Notes: generated by a model not told the origin, from the letters alone. 64,000 nucleotides of DNA from Eledone cirrhosa (GCA_964016885.1 OZ024741.1:52886001-52950000); one strand, 5' to 3'; numbered from the stretch's first letter, positions 24,253 through 62,072 are shown. Made by a program: numbers and translations.

Positions 24253-24441
24253 GTACGTTAATCCGGGTTGAATCGGAGGTAACCACAGTAAGTAAGGTAC
24301 TCAATACATTGCAGAGTATAAAAGTTTTAATATAGATGAGATTCTACAGGACTAGAACTGTTTCATTCTTTAGAAATCATCAGGAATCATGATGATTTCT
24401 AAAGAATGAAACAGTTCTAGTCCTGTAGAATCTCATCTATA
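24253..24441 (-). mobile_element. Short fold-back element (Penelope-like pLTR-type) with hammerhead core, inserted in (TA)n
   Basis: Perfect 52-bp inverted repeat (24331-24382 / 24390-24441) plus a unique ~78-bp tail; (TA)n on both sides; homologous copy at 58899-59094. Confidence 0.8.
24340..24388 (-). ncRNA. Minimal type I hammerhead ribozyme
   Basis: Minus strand reads GAUUC-CUGAUGA-uuucuaaagaau-GAA-ACAG-uucuaguc-CUGU-A-GAAUC: stem I GAUUC/GAAUC, short stem II UUC/GAA, stem III ACAG/CUGU with palindromic CUAG in the loop, GUA cleavage triplet. Confidence 0.8.
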
Positions 24442-24540
24442 TATATATATATATATATATATATATATATATATATATATATATGTGTGTGTGTGTCTAT
24501 ATATATATATATATATATATATATATATAAAGAGAGAGAG

Positions 24541-24621
24541 ACACAGGACATGGCAGCGATGATGAGGGACAGAGACCGCTGGAGAGAACTCATCGATGGA
24601 TCTCAGGAATTTTACCCGCCT
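24541..24621 (+). mobile_element. ~80-bp 3'-terminal fragment of RTE LINE (same family as 60318-60940)
   Basis: caggacatggcagc...gggacagagaccgctggagagaactc...tacccgcct matches the reverse complement of ~60320-60400. Confidence 0.85.
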
Positions 24622-24780
24622 TATATATATACATATATATATATATATATGTAATTATATGTATCTATAGACATATGACTGTATATATATATATATATAT
24701 AGTCTCTTTTCTTTCCTTTTTCTTTTCTCCGTATGTGTACATATATACATACAAACATACATACATACATACATAAATAA

Positions 24781-26170
24781 GGAGAGAACCAGAACTGAAT
24801 ACCTCTGAAGAGTAAAGAAAATATGGTCATCAGAACTGTCAGCGTACAACAAATTCATTGCCCACAATACTTATGCTGTGCCAATTCTAACGCCAACATT
24901 TGGCCTTCTGAACTGGTCATTGCAAGACCTAAGTGAGATGGATGTTAGAACTCGCAAACTTCTCAGTGTAACTGGGAATTTTAACATCAATGGTGATATT
25001 GATAGGCTATACTTCTCACGCAAGGAAGGATGTTAGAACTCGCAAACTTCTCAGTGTTTCTGGGAACTTTAACATCAATGGTGATGTGGATAGGCTATAC
25101 TTCTCACGCAAGGAAGGTGGCCGGGGTCTAAAATCCATATTAACATCATATGAGACCCGGATAGTAACACTGAAGCAACACCTTCAACAGAGGAAAAAGG
25201 TTGGCAACCATCTTGCCCAGGATTATGAGCATGAACAAAAAAATATCATTAGAATAGCCACTGATCTGGAGGAGAGATATGGAATAAAACCTGATATAAA
25301 TCTCTCACCCAGAGAAATCGGAAGATCCTATTCAATGTTCAAAGAAGATGAAAAAATTGACCAATTTACAGAAAAAGTTGTGCATGGATACTTGAGACGT
25401 AAAACACAGACCATAGAGGGGATAAACCACTCAAAAAGCCTGGCATGGAGTTCCGACAAGTTTATGACATCACACCTTGAGGGATATCTCTATGCAATAC
25501 AGGAACAAGAACTCCCTACCAAATATCTGCTGCACAAAGGGGGGGGGGGGCATCAACTGACAATAAATGTAAAACAAAGATCGAGGATGTAAGCCACATT
25601 GTTGCCAGCTGCGAAAGAATGTCATCTCGCTACTACCTCCCATGAGACACGATGGGATAGCTAGAACCATCTGGAACGCACTTCGGAAAACAAAATTAAC
25701 AACAAACGAGGAAGAATATATTGAGACAGATGGCACTAAGTAATACTAGTGGAACCTGAAAATAAAAACTGCCACCAAATTAAAGCACAACCGGCCTGAT
25801 ATTGTTGTTTGGGACCACACGTTGAAAACGTGTTCTGTTGTGGAGATCAGCTGCCCACTTGATATAAACGTTGTCAGAAAAATACAGGAGAAGGAGGACA
25901 TCTACGGACCAATAATGAGGAGTTTGCAAATCCAGTATCCAAGATACACCTTTGCATCATACCCATCATTATTGGAGCTACGGGTTATATACCAACCCGT
26001 TTGGACCAAAGTATGACTGAACTTGGATTTGCCGACAAAGAGCGCAGCTCCCTAATTCATAGTCTACAAATGGCTGCGATAGCTGGCACCTTCAAAATTT
26101 GCAAAACATTCTTTCGATTGAAGGGATGACAATTTATTTTCTTTTACAACCTAGCCATCAGGAAGGTGGC
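24781..26170 (+). mobile_element. 5'-truncated, disrupted R4/Dong-like non-LTR retrotransposon (RT C-terminus plus restriction-like endonuclease)
   Basis: Translates to KIWSSELSAYNKFIAHNTYAVP, RLYFSRKEGGRGL, EGYLYAIQEQELPT, HIVASC...RHD, HNRPDIVVWD...VVEISCP (PD-D/E nuclease); stops and frameshifts present. Confidence 0.85.
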
Positions 26171-26519
26171 CGGTCAAAAAAATATACTCGAAATTAAGAG
26201 AAAGAGATAACATACAATTACATACGTATGTATATGTTGTGAATATTTCAACATAGTTATATTTCTTGTTGTAGGTAGTGATGCAATAAAATAAAATAAT
26301 TTTTTTATTTGAATGTTAACTCTTAGAAATCTAAAGAAAATACAATTCTTTCTTAACATCAAATCATTGAAAATAACTTTGTTCCTGTTGAGAATACTAC
26401 TTGGCATATGTTTTTATATAATCCTGTAAAATATTAATTTTCAGAAGGAAACTTTTTCATTGAAGTTAATATTAAAAACATAGCCCTAAGTTCCAAAACT
26501 TAAATACGTAAATACATAT

Positions 26520-59720: not shown

Positions 59721-60023
59721 GATGTCACATGGTGGACAAAACATACGTTTTGTAGTTGAACTATTAAATGATCAAAATACAATGCGGCTAGAGATAGCGA
59801 CCGAAAGACCGTCTAATACAACTCGACAAAGTAAGGAGTAGCTTAATATTAATTAAAGTTTAATTAGTCCCTAATACTTAAGCCTCTCAATAAGTGGATA
59901 AAATATACAGAGATAAGAAATCACTCAGAAAATCCATATTATATATTAAATTTAAGTGAGAAGAAACTATTTTGTGCAAAGCAGTATGTATAATTTCTAC
60001 CCTTTACTCTTTGAAAAATTAAA

Positions 60024-60116
60024 ACTCTCCTGAAGAGTATTGCGGATTCTTCAATTATTGATGATTCCAATAATAGGTTCTTCCGCAAATGAAATTAGAT
60101 CTTTATACAGGCGAGT
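60024..60116 (+). ncRNA. Degenerate hammerhead-like motif with extended stem II
   Basis: CUGAAGA at 60030-36; UUGCGGA/UCCGCAA and inner AUUAUUG/CAAUAAU stems; GAAA at 60091-94 followed by AGAUCU palindrome; cleavage-site region not canonical. Confidence 0.35.
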
Positions 60117-60317
60117 ATGGATAAAATGTTTTTTTTTTTGTCTGTCTCGCTTGTAATCCCATAAATAGAGAATTTTCTCACTTCAATGTAATATAATATA
60201 AAATATAATATATATATATATATATATATATATATATATATATATATATATATATATATATATGTGTGTGTGTGTGTGTGTGTGTGTGTGTGTGTGTGTG
60301 TGTGTGTGTGTGTGTAT

Positions 60318-61860
60318 CTAAGGCGGGTAACATTCCCGAGATCCATGGACGAGTTCTCTCCAGCGGTCTCTGTCCCTTATTATTGCTGCCATGTCCTGCG
60401 TCTCCAAGAGACCAGTGTCTGTCCTTAGGGCATCAACATATGTTAACCTCGGTCTTCCTCTTCCAATGTGTCCATGCAGGAGCTCCCACAGGAGCACTGA
60501 GTGCAGTGTCAACTCTGGAAGTCGGTGAGCATGTCCAGCTAATCTTAGTCTCCTCTGTGTCCCTTTTGAGCTGACCTTTGGGAGGCTCCCGTACAGCTCT
60601 GAGTTCTTCATCCTCAGTGTATACTGATTAACGTTCAGATCCATCCTCAGCATTCTCGTGTAGCATCCATCCACCATCTGAGTGAGTTTCTTGGTCAGTG
60701 TCCAAGTCTCAGACCCGTACAGCACCACAGACTCCACTACAGCAACGAAGAAGCGGATCTTCAGGTCTTTACGAAGGTCCGACTTCCACACCGATCTCAA
60801 GCTGTGGCACGCCGCCCAGGCTTTGCTCTTCCTCTCGACCACATCATCTTCGGTATTCCCAATATTTGCTCTCCAATAAAAGAAGTCCTCAACCAATTCT
60901 AGTGGCTTCCCGCCTACATTAGTAATCTTCTCTGGCTTCCTTTGTTTGAGAAACTGGATATTGAGACAGGGCCCTTCACCAGAGAGGAACTTCAGAGAGC
61001 CAAGAAGAAGATCAAGGAGGGCATGTCTTATGGATAAGATGGAGTGGCATCAGAGGTGATGAAGCGGTGTGATTTTGATGATATCATCCTGGAGTTCTGT
61101 AACCAGGCACTGGAGAAAGGAGTTGCCCCTAATCAATGGAGGATCAGTAACATCGTCCCAGTGCCAAATCAGGGAGATCTCTCTAACACCAACAACTACA
61201 GGGGGATCTCACTGACGTCACTTGTGGCAAAGACCCTCAACAGGATGATTCTTAACAGGATCCAGCCCGAGATGGAGAAGAAGCTCAGGGACAACCAGAA
61301 CGGCTTCAGAGAGGGAAGATCATCCACCAGTCACATCCTGATGCTGAGGAGGATATTAGAGGGAGTTAGAGCAAAGTGCCTTCCTCTGGTCATGGTTTTC
61401 ATTGACTTGAGGTAGGCCTTTGATTCTGTGGGCCGTCACTGCCTGATGAAGATCTTACAGGCTTATGGAATCCCCAAGAAGATAGTGGTCCTGATATCAC
61501 TGCTCTACACTAACACCAAAGCCCAAGTCACGACACCTGATGGGATGACAGAGTTCTTTGCGATACTGGCTAGAGTGCTCCAGGGAGATACATTGGCTCC
61601 CTACCTTTTTATCATCGTAGTGGACTATTGTATGCGCCTTGCGCTGGACAAACACCAGGAATTTGGCTTTACTGTAGCACCGGCTCAGAGCAGGAGAGTT
61701 AAGGCGAAAAAGATATCGGATGCTGAATTTGCCGACGACATTGTTTTGGTGACAAACACAGTGAAGGAGGCAGAGGATTTGATGCGGGAGGTTGAGACTG
61801 TGTCGATGAGTGTGGGGCTGAGAATGAATGAGATTAAGACAAAATATCTGGTAGAGAATA
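60318..61860 (-). mobile_element. RTE LINE with 5' inversion (3' part on minus 60318-~60940; RT part on plus ~60940-61860)
   Basis: Plus: YRGISLTS, QNGFR, FIDLR*AFDSV, QGDTLAPYLF, EFADD, KTKYLVENI. Minus continues KPEKITNVGGKPLELVEDF...YGSETWTL...RRLRLAGH...GRGRP. Confidence 0.9.
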
Positions 61861-61905
61861 TATATATGTGTGTATATATATATATATATATATATATATA
61901 TATAT

Positions 61906-62072
61906 ATAGGAAAATGTTTAACCCCGACGGCAGAGCTCATGAAATAGCCGTCGAAACGGCTTGAGCTCTGCCGTCGGGGTTAAACATTTTCCTATTACCC
62001 ACTCTACACCCTAAGTATTGAGTACTCTGGTGCGTTATGGTCCATCTGGTTCCTTACCACATTTCCTTCGTT
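61906..62072 (+). mobile_element. Third fold-back element with 5'-truncated hammerhead, in (TA)n
   Basis: Perfect 34-bp inverted arms 61906-39 / 61962-95; (A)UGA...GAA-ACGGC-uugagcucu-GCCGU-C-GGGGUU; tail contains GTATTGAGTAC. Confidence 0.75.

Follow-up and report, generated by a model that had tools for sequence, protein, structure and literature searches.

Fold-back units in microsatellites of Eledone cirrhosa: probable 3' ends of Hydra-clade Penelope-like elements inserted with a partial inverted copy

Three short non-coding units (U1, U2 and U3) in the 64,000-nucleotide stretch of Eledone cirrhosa DNA analysed here (the window) fold back on themselves, and a sequence-only reading had placed their turn-around points in or next to the hammerhead sequence CUGAUGA. 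This raises the question whether the fold-back belongs to a ribozyme or arose in another way.

Layout of the units and their likely source

All three units consist of an arm-to-arm inverted duplication with a one-sided tail, flanked by TA/CA microsatellites, in agreement with the sequence-only reading (see Table). The arms of U1 (24317–24385 and 24387–24455) are 90% complementary; without the microsatellite, the core has a 7-nt centre and, on either side of it, perfect arms of 52 nt (-96.4 kcal/mol, z = -17), with a single filler nucleotide at 24389, and the outer end of the inverted arm fades into (TA)n. U2 has arms of 72 nt with 83% complementarity (58887–58958 and 58962–59033), the inverted arm ending outwards at a TA-rich spot beside (TA)n and the tail terminating in ..CCCGGGACT, adjoining (CA)n. 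The arms of U3 (61906–61939 and 61962–61995) are 34 nt long and 100% complementary. An 11-mer, GTATTGAGTAC, could be read in the tails of all three units. U1 and U2 had been assigned to one family; they are indeed related, each being about 75–80% identical to the same long copy, and their modules are listed here as family 1 and family 2. Each unit's family is present in high copy number in the 3.0 Gb genome, the 890 to 6267 first-look candidates being lower bounds.

Table. Features of the window (positions counted from its first nucleotide)
Feature	Position	Strand	Remarks and basis
U1 direct arm	24253..24388	-	complete 136-nt 3'-terminal module, from +1 G (24388) to 3' end ..AACGTAC (24253); hammerhead motif plus ~90-nt tail; 3' end constant in 30/30 copies
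U1 candidate type I hammerhead motif	24340..24388	-	motif scan, covariation across lineages
U1 inverted partial copy	24390..24441	+	complement of module +7..+59
Fourth fold-back, tRNA-like non-coding element	51318..51712	+	layout as U1–U3; Rfam tRNA match 51493–51564
Hydra-clade PLE	51751..55110	-	(TA)n at both sides; lineage distinct from U1–U3
U2 inverted partial copy	58887..58958	-	CTGATGA kept on - strand
U2 direct arm	58959..59094	+	family 2 module; hammerhead core decayed to CCTGCTAA
U3 inverted partial copy	61906..61939	-	complement of ~+28..+61
U3 direct arm	61940..62072	+	family 3 module, ~+7 to 3' end ..CCTTCGTT, then (AT)n

Copies have a fixed 3' end (see Table). For families 1 and 3, (TA)4+ was found at most 24 nt from it in 30/30, 29/30 and 29/30 copies; the background is 4% of window positions. 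This upholds the proposed preference for (TA)n. Fixed 3' ends, 5' truncation, an adjoining inverted 5'-truncated copy and a microsatellite target together characterize insertions of Penelope-like elements (PLEs), and all four are seen in these families. The suggestion that the units are extreme 5'-truncated PLE insertions is borne out by long copies that extend upstream into RT/GIY-YIG ORFs. Hydra-type ORFs of this kind lie upstream in the family 1 long copies L121 and L122, where P0001, the translation of the ORF at 52391–54736 (-) in the window, gave tblastn matches at 3301–5143 (up to 46% identity) and 5056–5964, respectively; the same query identified Hydra-type ORFs upstream of the module in three family 3 long copies (L075–L077). 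Judged by sequence, the units are the last 135–140 bases of Hydra-clade PLEs.

P0001 itself fits the Hydra clade by motifs read against excerpts of PMC8557442, and the earlier recognition of a PLE at 52–55 kb is thereby confirmed. These motifs are RWK (IRWKTF), DKT instead of DKG (RADKTS) and a CxCx5C linker (CNCVQPGMC), in addition to CxxC and CxH around conserved E and N residues (CKLCNVE, CNH); YRDD and VYK..YVGST were read by eye. P0001 has no Pfam match, and a profile of 20 of its homologues matched retron RT (E=0.0036). The 49 homologues are of 448–817 residues (mostly ~550–750), most of them on contigs of ~2.5 kb; PF26215 was assigned to homologues of P0001. As a driver of the units this PLE had been a candidate, but its 3' end differs from theirs and the motif scan found no hammerhead in it, so it is not the obvious source. 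Other Hydra lineages are more likely sources.

Palindromic shape and TA flanks would also suit a DNA transposon of the MITE type, which carries terminal inverted repeats and duplicates a TA target, and a palindrome might be an assembly artefact. Both are hardly credible here: neither inverted repeats at the two ends nor a constant target duplication is present in the units, which have a one-sided tail of 75–90 nt and one fixed end, with variable arm length and turn. Moreover, there are copies without an inverted arm or continuous with PLE ORFs, the units occur at hundreds to thousands of loci, and opposite-strand joints are found at the same place in short-read contigs.

The layout recurs in the tRNA-like element, whose window copy turns at the 5' boundary of the tRNA-like part and has a 3' end, ..CTTACTTGA, that adjoins (TA)n. 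Processing by tRNase Z was rejected as the start of its short copies, as their common start lies inside the T-arm/acceptor region and not at the tRNA 3' end. The segment 28121–28200 was dismissed as a further fold-back, being merely a TA-rich palindrome.

A candidate hammerhead motif

Two of the three units carry a candidate hammerhead motif of the kind known from PLEs. In U1 (- strand, 24388–24340), the motif scan yields GATTC CTGATGA TTTCTAAAGAAT GAAA CAGTTCTAGTCCTG TA|GAATC, with stem I formed by GAUUC/GAAUC, the core CUGAUGA, a stem II of UUC/GAA with flanking U.U, followed by GAAA, and a 3-bp stem III (CAG/CUG) closing an 8-nt loop that contains CUAG; cleavage is predicted after GUA. U2 has kept CTGATGA in its inverted arm only (+ strand TCATCAG, 58950–58956), and its arm joined to the tail reads CCTGCTAA; the intact motif is present in other family 2 copies. 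In U3, CUGANGA is absent from both strands. Its CTCATGA is a product of the arm junction, where inverted ..GAGCTCA meets direct TGAAATAG.., and its direct arm resembles the 3' half of a hammerhead in having GAAAC, a hairpin whose loop contains GAGCUC, and GUC. The type I order CUGANGA...GAAA...UH with helices I–III is thus found in U1 and in intact family 2 copies, not in U3, and a turn-around beside CUGAUGA holds for U1, for U2 only by way of the CTGATGA of the inverted arm, and for U3 not at all.

A strict motif scan of the fetched loci gave 96 matches among 369 CTGANGA cores, compared with 0/69 in a reversed-sequence control. The stems of the motif covary, as at least ten lineages among these loci differ in the sequences of stems I and II and yet pair. 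When stem I was left out of the search, 217/312 positions still paired in register, against 130–159 when slid by 1–2 bases. Rfam searches identified no hammerhead family in the window at gathering score, none at E<=10 in 24000–24700 (RAGATH-1 only, with 15.9 bits on the wrong strand), and no hammerhead or other ribozyme at E<=5 among the 150 matches listed for five loci. Nor was there an Rfam match to a SINE-type Pol III head (tRNA, 7SL, 5S) in U1 or the searched family 2 and 3 loci. Numerous matches to Rfam miRNA families reflect merely hairpins and TA repeats. The U1 motif differs from the minimum free energy fold (z = -0.01). A hammerhead upstream of the family 3 start, in which CGGCUAUUU pairs with AAAUAGCCG around ..CUGAAAA..AGUC|CAG, was rejected for lack of a core.

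5' ends, turn-around points and a proposed mechanism

A family 1 sample collected with a tail-only query comprises 30 loci, 10 long and 20 short copies. Eleven short copies start at -2 to +3, seven at +6 to +53 and two at -34/-37; none of the 20 starts at the predicted cleavage site (+45). Similarly, 23 of 26 short copies of family 3 begin at -6 to +8. In 10/10 family 1 long copies, a TATAAATA box is situated 31–33 nt upstream of +1, followed by the Inr-like sequence CCAGATT, and family 3 has TATTTAA and TTAGTCC at equivalent positions. Measured from TATAAATA in family 1 and from TATTTAA in family 3, the narrow zone in which short copies start lies 31 nt downstream. Two features, the spacing of the TATA and Inr-like sequences and the accumulation of 5' ends, lead us to predict a likely transcription start at +1, i.e. 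5–6 nt ahead of the hammerhead core. A weak hint comes from the summed depth of contigs, which is about 6-fold higher in the bin containing +1 (L121 7474) in X1–X3, runs of one sample. The four runs used are contigs of one study and cannot reveal RNA starts. Rare joints that go back occur in contigs.

Mapping of the turn-around points places their cluster at the predicted transcription start, and not at the core or the cleavage site; the turn would adjoin CUGAUGA because short copies start at the predicted TATA/Inr start, just before the core. An inverted arm is present in 17/20 short copies of the tail-only family 1 sample, ending at +59, +66 or +72/73 in 14/17, and in 21/26 of family 3, ending at +59 to +62 in 17/21. 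On its inner side this arm stops at positions that differ by a few bases between copies; on its outer side it stops where the element is rich in TA. Since the turn-around point differs from copy to copy in families 1, 2 and 3, the fold-back is read as an insertion scar, likely made anew at each insertion, instead of an inherited ribozyme feature.

This bears on the idea of a functional ribozyme, in which two hammerheads would act as a dimer and yield circular RNAs as in retrozymes. The covariation of the motif would suit it, as would the palindromic CUAG of the stem III loop, which recalls PLE and retrozyme hammerheads thought to be dimeric (excerpts of PMC4209133). However, the inverted arm is antisense, so that the same strand holds no second ribozyme, and transcribed arms are modelled to give a 52-bp duplex that would exclude the hammerhead fold. 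Moreover, U3 and the tRNA-like element fold back although they have no hammerhead core, no 5' ends occur at the cleavage site, and the units are single, with no head-to-tail tandem array among the three of the window, which also speaks against calling them retrozyme-like. A tie between the fold-back and hammerhead or dimer function appears highly improbable.

We propose instead, as the probable reading, that the units are 3' ends of Hydra PLEs in microsatellites and that the inverted copy was made at insertion by two-strand priming of a promoter-started RNA. Any long copy would, from the promoter in its 3' module, give rise to a short RNA consisting of start site, hammerhead and tail, which would bear the start site of the PLE reverse transcriptase. 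A PLE protein acting in trans would cut both strands of (TA)n; one target strand would prime at the tail end and be copied up to the RNA 5' end, the second would prime by microhomology at a UA-rich internal site, and a head-to-head joint would link the two cDNAs at the RNA 5' end. The hammerhead would be a passenger, locked within a 52-bp hairpin in the fold-back copy. Purified PLE protein cuts and extends both target strands, and PLE reverse transcription begins internally, downstream of the hammerhead, the cleavage of which is dispensable (PMC11167929). According to excerpts of PMC8557442, PLEs can have inverted copies truncated at the 5' end and start transcription within the pLTR.

The structure of the turns allows this joining to be weighed against a snap-back, in which, with the same source and target, the tail-primed cDNA would fold at the RNA 5' end and copy itself. 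The tail-attached arm is nearly always complete and the bases at the turn are missing from the inverted arm, as a snap-back would have it; the commonest family 1 turn, with an inverted arm short of 6 bases plus 1 filler base, has a 7-nt asymmetric centre that would also suit it. This turn has no base-paired primer terminus, however, and several family 1 copies are perfect or near-perfect palindromes with 0–1 unpaired base (e.g. GGAATCATGATTCC and GGAAT|GATTCC), as is the turn CAGGAAAGCTTTCCTG in four family 2 copies (L037, L041, L058 and L059). Such palindromes are more readily explained by two cDNAs being joined than by an intramolecular hairpin. In some copies (L102) the inverted arm extends further upstream than the direct arm, and the extension of both strands in vitro (PMC11167929) likewise argues against snap-back, which we regard as quite improbable.

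Alternatively, the fold-back could propagate itself in a SINE- or retrozyme-like manner, the hairpin being inherited from masters such as full head-to-head dimers that are transcribed and reverse transcribed; daughters would then differ only by 5' truncation within the inverted arm. Copy number is very high, and the same turn type is found in copies that differ in their outer ends: in a query-biased family 1 set (28 evaluated), 8–10 turns are of the T type, 5 are GGAAT|GATTCC, 5 of the TGA type and 3 of the AT type. One copy, L018, is a complete head-to-head dimer that shares its turn with the truncated L013, L016, L028 and L029, and the largest group defined by 5-site haplotypes, with 20 short copies, has no long copy in the query-biased sample. 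In contrast, no turn recurs among independent loci of the tail-only sample, where the sole repeat concerns L095/L110, near-identical loci on two small contigs. At least five turn types occur inside one haplotype, families 2 and 3 have many different turns, short family 1 copies match four different long-copy haplotypes, and the TATA box lies outside the short copy. Beyond the turn, copies share no asymmetries between their arms, which is uninformative as a test for a fold-back master. Self-propagation is therefore unlikely as the general explanation, but, given the few recurrent turn types and the L018 turn in four truncated copies, some secondary copying from fold-back sources may occur.

Relation to known elements

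No new kind of element is involved, as the Hydra clade, its (TA)n preference, PLE hammerheads and inverted 5' copies of PLEs have all been published. In excerpts of PMC8557442 (Craig et al. 2021), 'almost all' members of the Hydra clade insert into (TA)n, related lineages have hammerhead motifs, and heavy 5' truncation with an inverted 5'-truncated copy beside the insertion is described, in agreement with what is seen here, whereas the window's own copy at 52–55 kb lacks a hammerhead in the motif scan. The family 1 source has a 3' UTR of 1.7–2.4 kb and therefore exceeds the 'generally <3 kb' given there for the clade. These excerpts do not mention an accumulation of short copies at a point defined by TATA/Inr, and they name the origin of inverted and tandem PLE ends as unsolved.

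In the integration system of Frangieh et al. 2024 (PMC11167929), two-strand cleavage and extension, an AT-rich target, a reverse transcription start fixed ~90–110 nt downstream of the hammerhead and an uncleaved RNA template are as envisaged here. That system is a lizard Poseidon element, and head-to-head products are not described for it; here they would be read from genomic junctions of Hydra-type elements alone.

In the twin priming of L1 attributed to Ostertag and Kazazian (2001), the second target strand reportedly primes synthesis on that same RNA, leaving a 5' segment in inverted orientation. That segment stems from another part of the RNA, further upstream, whereas here both cDNAs would cover the same short RNA, hence the fold-back. 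A literature search on PLEs and twin priming apparently returned nothing on PLE insertion structure.

The value of the units is that they offer data on an open mechanism, and a concrete, testable model in which two strands are primed and the cDNAs joined at the RNA 5' end. Short templates make both cDNA ends readable, with 5' ends piled up at the predicted start, outer ends at TA microhomology and often blunt palindromic junctions, and the model would account for fold-back points beside a hammerhead with no catalytic role. It is a tentative, rather doubtful extension that a TATA/Inr promoter in the Hydra-type 3' module would let every copy keep spawning a 136-nt RNA that hijacks the enzyme. 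If so, thousands of natural junctions would form a ready-made record of two-ended target-primed reverse transcription, and a fresh insertion lacking the inverted arm would find a TATA sequence already in place ahead of it, because the target is (TA)n, and could become a source.

With the minimal PLE hammerheads of Cervera and de la Pena 2014 (excerpts of PMC4209133), the motif shares type I topology, short helices I and III, one additional unpaired base where stem II begins, and a loop with a palindrome capping helix III, and there, too, mostly single motifs occur in truncated PLEs; pairs on opposite strands, 100–700 bp apart, were noted. The helix III of 3 bp with its 8-nt loop and the U.U flanking stem II differ from these; U.U at that position is found in an axolotl retrozyme hammerhead with poor activity (excerpts of PMC7229834). 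Animal non-LTR retrozymes, as portrayed in excerpts of PMC7229834 and bioRxiv 10.64898/2026.07.22.740005, are likewise small, non-coding, related to PLE pLTRs and equipped with a type I hammerhead. They are tandem arrays expressed as circular RNAs, whereas U1–U3 are single dispersed fold-back insertions whose ends are unrelated to the cleavage site.

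Fold-back units and their microsatellite targets

An inverted-repeat scan of the window recovered, in outline, the three non-coding units that the sequence-only reading had described as inverted duplications with a one-sided tail (U1, U2 and U3; see table), and U1 has a fold of -96.4 kcal/mol against -31.6 for shuffled sequences. Each unit is a single copy from a large dispersed family in a 3.0 Gb, microsatellite-rich, eukaryotic genome. First-look candidates in this genome number at least 1177 (U1), 6267 (U2) and 890 (U3), and the 40 best-scoring candidates of each search show 94–100%, 86–100% and 83–100% identity, respectively, ranges that take in the window's own copy.

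Fold-back units, the tRNA-like element and further hammerhead lineages
Feature	Positions or loci	Strand	Description
U1	24253-24441	-	two perfect 52-nt arms, 7-nt centre, tail ~75 nt
U2	58887-59094	+	72-nt arms, 83% complementarity
U3	61906-62072	+	34-nt arms, perfect
tRNA-like non-coding element	51318-51712	+	fold-back with the layout of U1-U3, in (TA)n
Further hammerhead lineages	L008, L010, L013, L020, L049, L063, L064, L078, L094, L097 (fetched genome loci)		covarying stems

The corresponding repeat families 1, 2 and 3 have one constant and one variable end. The constant end reads ..GGA(A/T)TAACGTA(C) in all 30 copies of family 1, ..CCCGGGACT in family 2 and ..CCTTCGTT in family 3. A run of at least four TA repeats was found no more than 24 nt past this end in 30/30 copies of family 1 with the full query (29/30 with the tail query), in 29/30 copies of family 3 and in 17/29 copies of family 2, where a further 8/29 adjoin (CA/TG)n. 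By position, the background is 4% for the window and 13% for the outer locus flanks, so that the (TA)n preference proposed earlier is upheld as a true enrichment. This identifies the fixed end as the 3' end of a retro-copy. A small palindrome rich in TA (ATTCACATATTTATATTTTTATA-(TA)n-mirror), located within a long microsatellite at 28121-28200, lacks element features.

Penelope-like elements in the window and as predicted sources

An open reading frame of 781 codons (52391-54736, minus strand) is assigned to a putative Hydra-type Penelope-like element (PLE) by the motifs read in its translation, P0001: RWK, DKT, YRDD, a CxCx5C linker, VYK..YVGST, and CxxC/CxH around E and N. This motif set is listed for the Hydra clade in PMC8557442, which also describes its families as 'almost all' inserting into (TA)n and as having canonical hammerheads. 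No Pfam match was obtained for P0001, and a profile of 20 homologues gave a weak match to retron reverse transcriptase (E = 0.0036). The 49 homologues measure 448–817 aa (mostly ~550–750), the majority being located on contigs of ~2.5 kb. The surrounding element (~51751-55110, minus strand) is apparently intact, with (TA)n on both flanks. Its 3'-terminal 15–17 bases (TATATTCATCCTTTC) have a second copy near 54880, ~230 nt from the 5' end; the regions around the two copies are otherwise unlike, and the repeat possibly represents what is left of a pLTR of a related element.

This PLE, previously put forward as a possible driver of the units, is not their source, because its 3' end differs and the motif scan shows no hammerhead in it. 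The predicted sources are other Hydra-type lineages. With a tail-only query, 10 of 30 family 1 loci were long copies, i.e. they run upstream of the module (the 3'-terminal 135–140 bases of the source element). Two of these were fetched further upstream, and both contain P0001-like reading frames ~1.7–2.4 kb before the module (L121, 3301-5143, up to 46% identity; L122, 5056-5964). Similarly, the family 3 module is preceded by P0001-like GIY-YIG/RT segments in L075-L077. The option that the units are 5'-truncated PLE insertions gains support from this continuity.

A G/T-rich low-complexity stretch (GGTGGTGATGG..) at 55200-57450 has open frames of 100–346 codons in several frames on both strands, with no Pfam match. 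A stretch resembling it is present in family 1 source copies, within their long 3' UTR (L121, 5916-7237); BLAST found no similarity between the two.

Hammerhead motifs

Only two candidates, in U1 and U2, were identified in a type I motif scan of the 64 kb. The motif of U1 (minus strand, 24388-24340) reads GAUUC-CUGAUGA-UUUCUAAAGAAU-GAAA-CAGUUCUAGUCCUG-UA|GAAUC. The tail-attached arm of U2 shows the decayed form CCUGCUAA; the intact motif is present in other family 2 copies, which, like U1, carry a predicted type I hammerhead. In U3, CUGANGA is absent from both strands, and its CTCATGA is created where the end of one arm meets the start of the other. Family 3 keeps GAAAC, a GAGCUC-loop hairpin and GUC, an arrangement that corresponds to the motif's 3' half alone. 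Of the hammerheads placed earlier at all three turns, that of U1 stands, that of U2 retains CUGAUGA in the inverted arm only, and that of U3 is not confirmed.

A strict motif scan of the fetched loci gave 96 hits from 369 cores, versus none from 69 cores in reversed sequence. The locus flanks hold at least ten other lineages (see table) with very different yet still-pairing stems I and II, examples being ACGUUG/CAGCGU, UUCAUU/AAUGAA, AACUGC/GCAGU and UUUUGU/AUAAAA. When stem I was not required by the search, it paired in register at 217/312 positions versus 130–159 when slid. The covariation on which the sequence-only reading had made its proposal partly depend is thus present across lineages, while the Infernal-type search it had suggested, performed with Rfam hammerhead models, gave no match in the window, in the U1 region or among the matches listed for five fetched loci. 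At least six of the further lineages have a tail of 50–125 nt followed by (TA)n. A U..U flanking stem II is common to several of them, and the hammerhead of L020 (AGCUUC/GAAGCU) has TATAAATA ~30 nt upstream.

The minimum-energy fold predicted for the 136-nt RNA differs from the motif (z = -0.01). Stem II of U1 consists of three A-U/G-C pairs with a U.U on its flank, in likeness to the poorly active axolotl hammerhead, for which a U.U beside stem II is described (PMC7229834).

Starts, turns and the proposed insertion reaction

Positions in family 1 are counted from the G of GAUUCC as +1. Among the 20 short copies in the tail-only sample of 30 loci, 11 start at -2..+3, seven at +6 to +53 and two at -34/-37; no start coincides with the predicted cleavage product (+45). 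In family 3, with the A of AGUCCAG as reference, the start falls at -6..+8 in 23/26 short copies; the query used for this sample contained the inverted arm of the window copy, which partly biased the sample. All ten long family 1 copies have TATAAATA upstream of the module, its first T 31–33 nt before +1, and CCAGATT at the start itself; in family 3, TATTTAA and TTAGTCC occur at equal distances. The initiator consensus is YYANWYY, and both pairs fit a predicted TATA box and initiator. On the simplest reading, a putative transcription start 5–6 nt before the hammerhead core is where short copies begin. PLEs are described as having a start site within the pLTR (PMC8557442). A weak hint of such a start is the approximately six-fold rise of summed contig depth in the bin with +1 (L121, 7474) in contig sets from three sequencing runs of one sample (X1-X3), in which ~75 contigs per run have unrelated sequence before L121 7476. 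Rare contig joints at L121 7459-7542 go back 73–78 bases (+63..+69 to -15..-4), forming partial direct tandems of the module; such joints occur in a few contigs per run versus thousands of single forms.

An inverted arm is present in 17/20 family 1 short copies, and in 14 of these 17 its outer end lies at +59, +66 or +72/73, where TATAT, TTAAAAC and TTTATA make the element indistinguishable from the (TA)n flank. The arm is present in 21/26 short copies of family 3, with the outer end at +59..+62 in 17/21. The turn, where the direct and inverted arms meet, varies by locus in the tail-only sample of family 1, the sole near-identical pair (L095/L110) being near-identical loci on two small contigs. 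Turns of family 2 are equally scattered and include perfect palindromes, e.g. CAGGAAAGCTTTCCTG. Since the turn varies and U3 is folded back without CUGANGA, the proposed tie to the hammerhead does not hold: the fold-back is independent of the ribozyme and was likely made at insertion. This independence, and the link between turn and predicted promoter start, are what the window adds to essentials already known from PLEs, namely the Hydra clade, (TA)n targeting, terminal-repeat hammerheads, strong 5' truncation and inverted 5'-truncated copies next to insertions.

A two-ended reaction fits the fixed 3' end, the pile-up of starts, the microhomology at outer ends and the frequent blunt or near-blunt palindromic turns. 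Both nicked strands of the (TA)n target would prime on a short RNA, one at the tail end and the other at a UA-rich internal site or likewise at the tail end; both cDNAs would extend to the RNA 5' end and be joined there. Tail-end priming by both strands would give full head-to-head dimers, such as L018 (G000:C9:40383663-40383902), a complete dimer of the family 1 module with a full tail on each side. One purified PLE protein cleaves and extends both strands, uses uncleaved RNA and begins reverse transcription internally, at a fixed position downstream of the hammerhead (PMC11167929). Intramolecular snap-back possibly made the turns with a 6–7-nt asymmetric centre, but accounts neither for centres of 0–1 nt nor for copies such as L102, where the inverted arm extends further upstream than the direct arm.

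Short copies may in part act as their own masters. In the query-biased set a few turn types recur with differing outer ends, the turn of L018 (..ATCATCA TGA GATTCC..) is the same as in four truncated copies (L013, L016, L028, L029), and the largest haplotype includes no long copy; some secondary copying from fold-back copies may therefore occur. Against this, 5-site haplotypes of short copies are shared with four different long-copy haplotypes and the TATA box lies outside the short copy, which argues for by-products of many long sources.

The tRNA-like element (Rfam tRNA match at 51493-51564, 34.3 bits) turns, in its window copy, precisely where the tRNA-like part has its 5' end, supporting the general rule that the turn marks an RNA 5' end. 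Its family numbers at least 1356 first-look candidates, and in many copies the turn is at ..GACGTACATGTACGTC.., within the T-arm/acceptor region and not at the 5' end of the tRNA. Read-through beyond the usual 3' end, into CATTAGAGTCGCTAAG.., is seen in five of 30 copies and reaches another tRNA-like unit in L146; it points to tandem source loci and to reverse transcription that begins internally.
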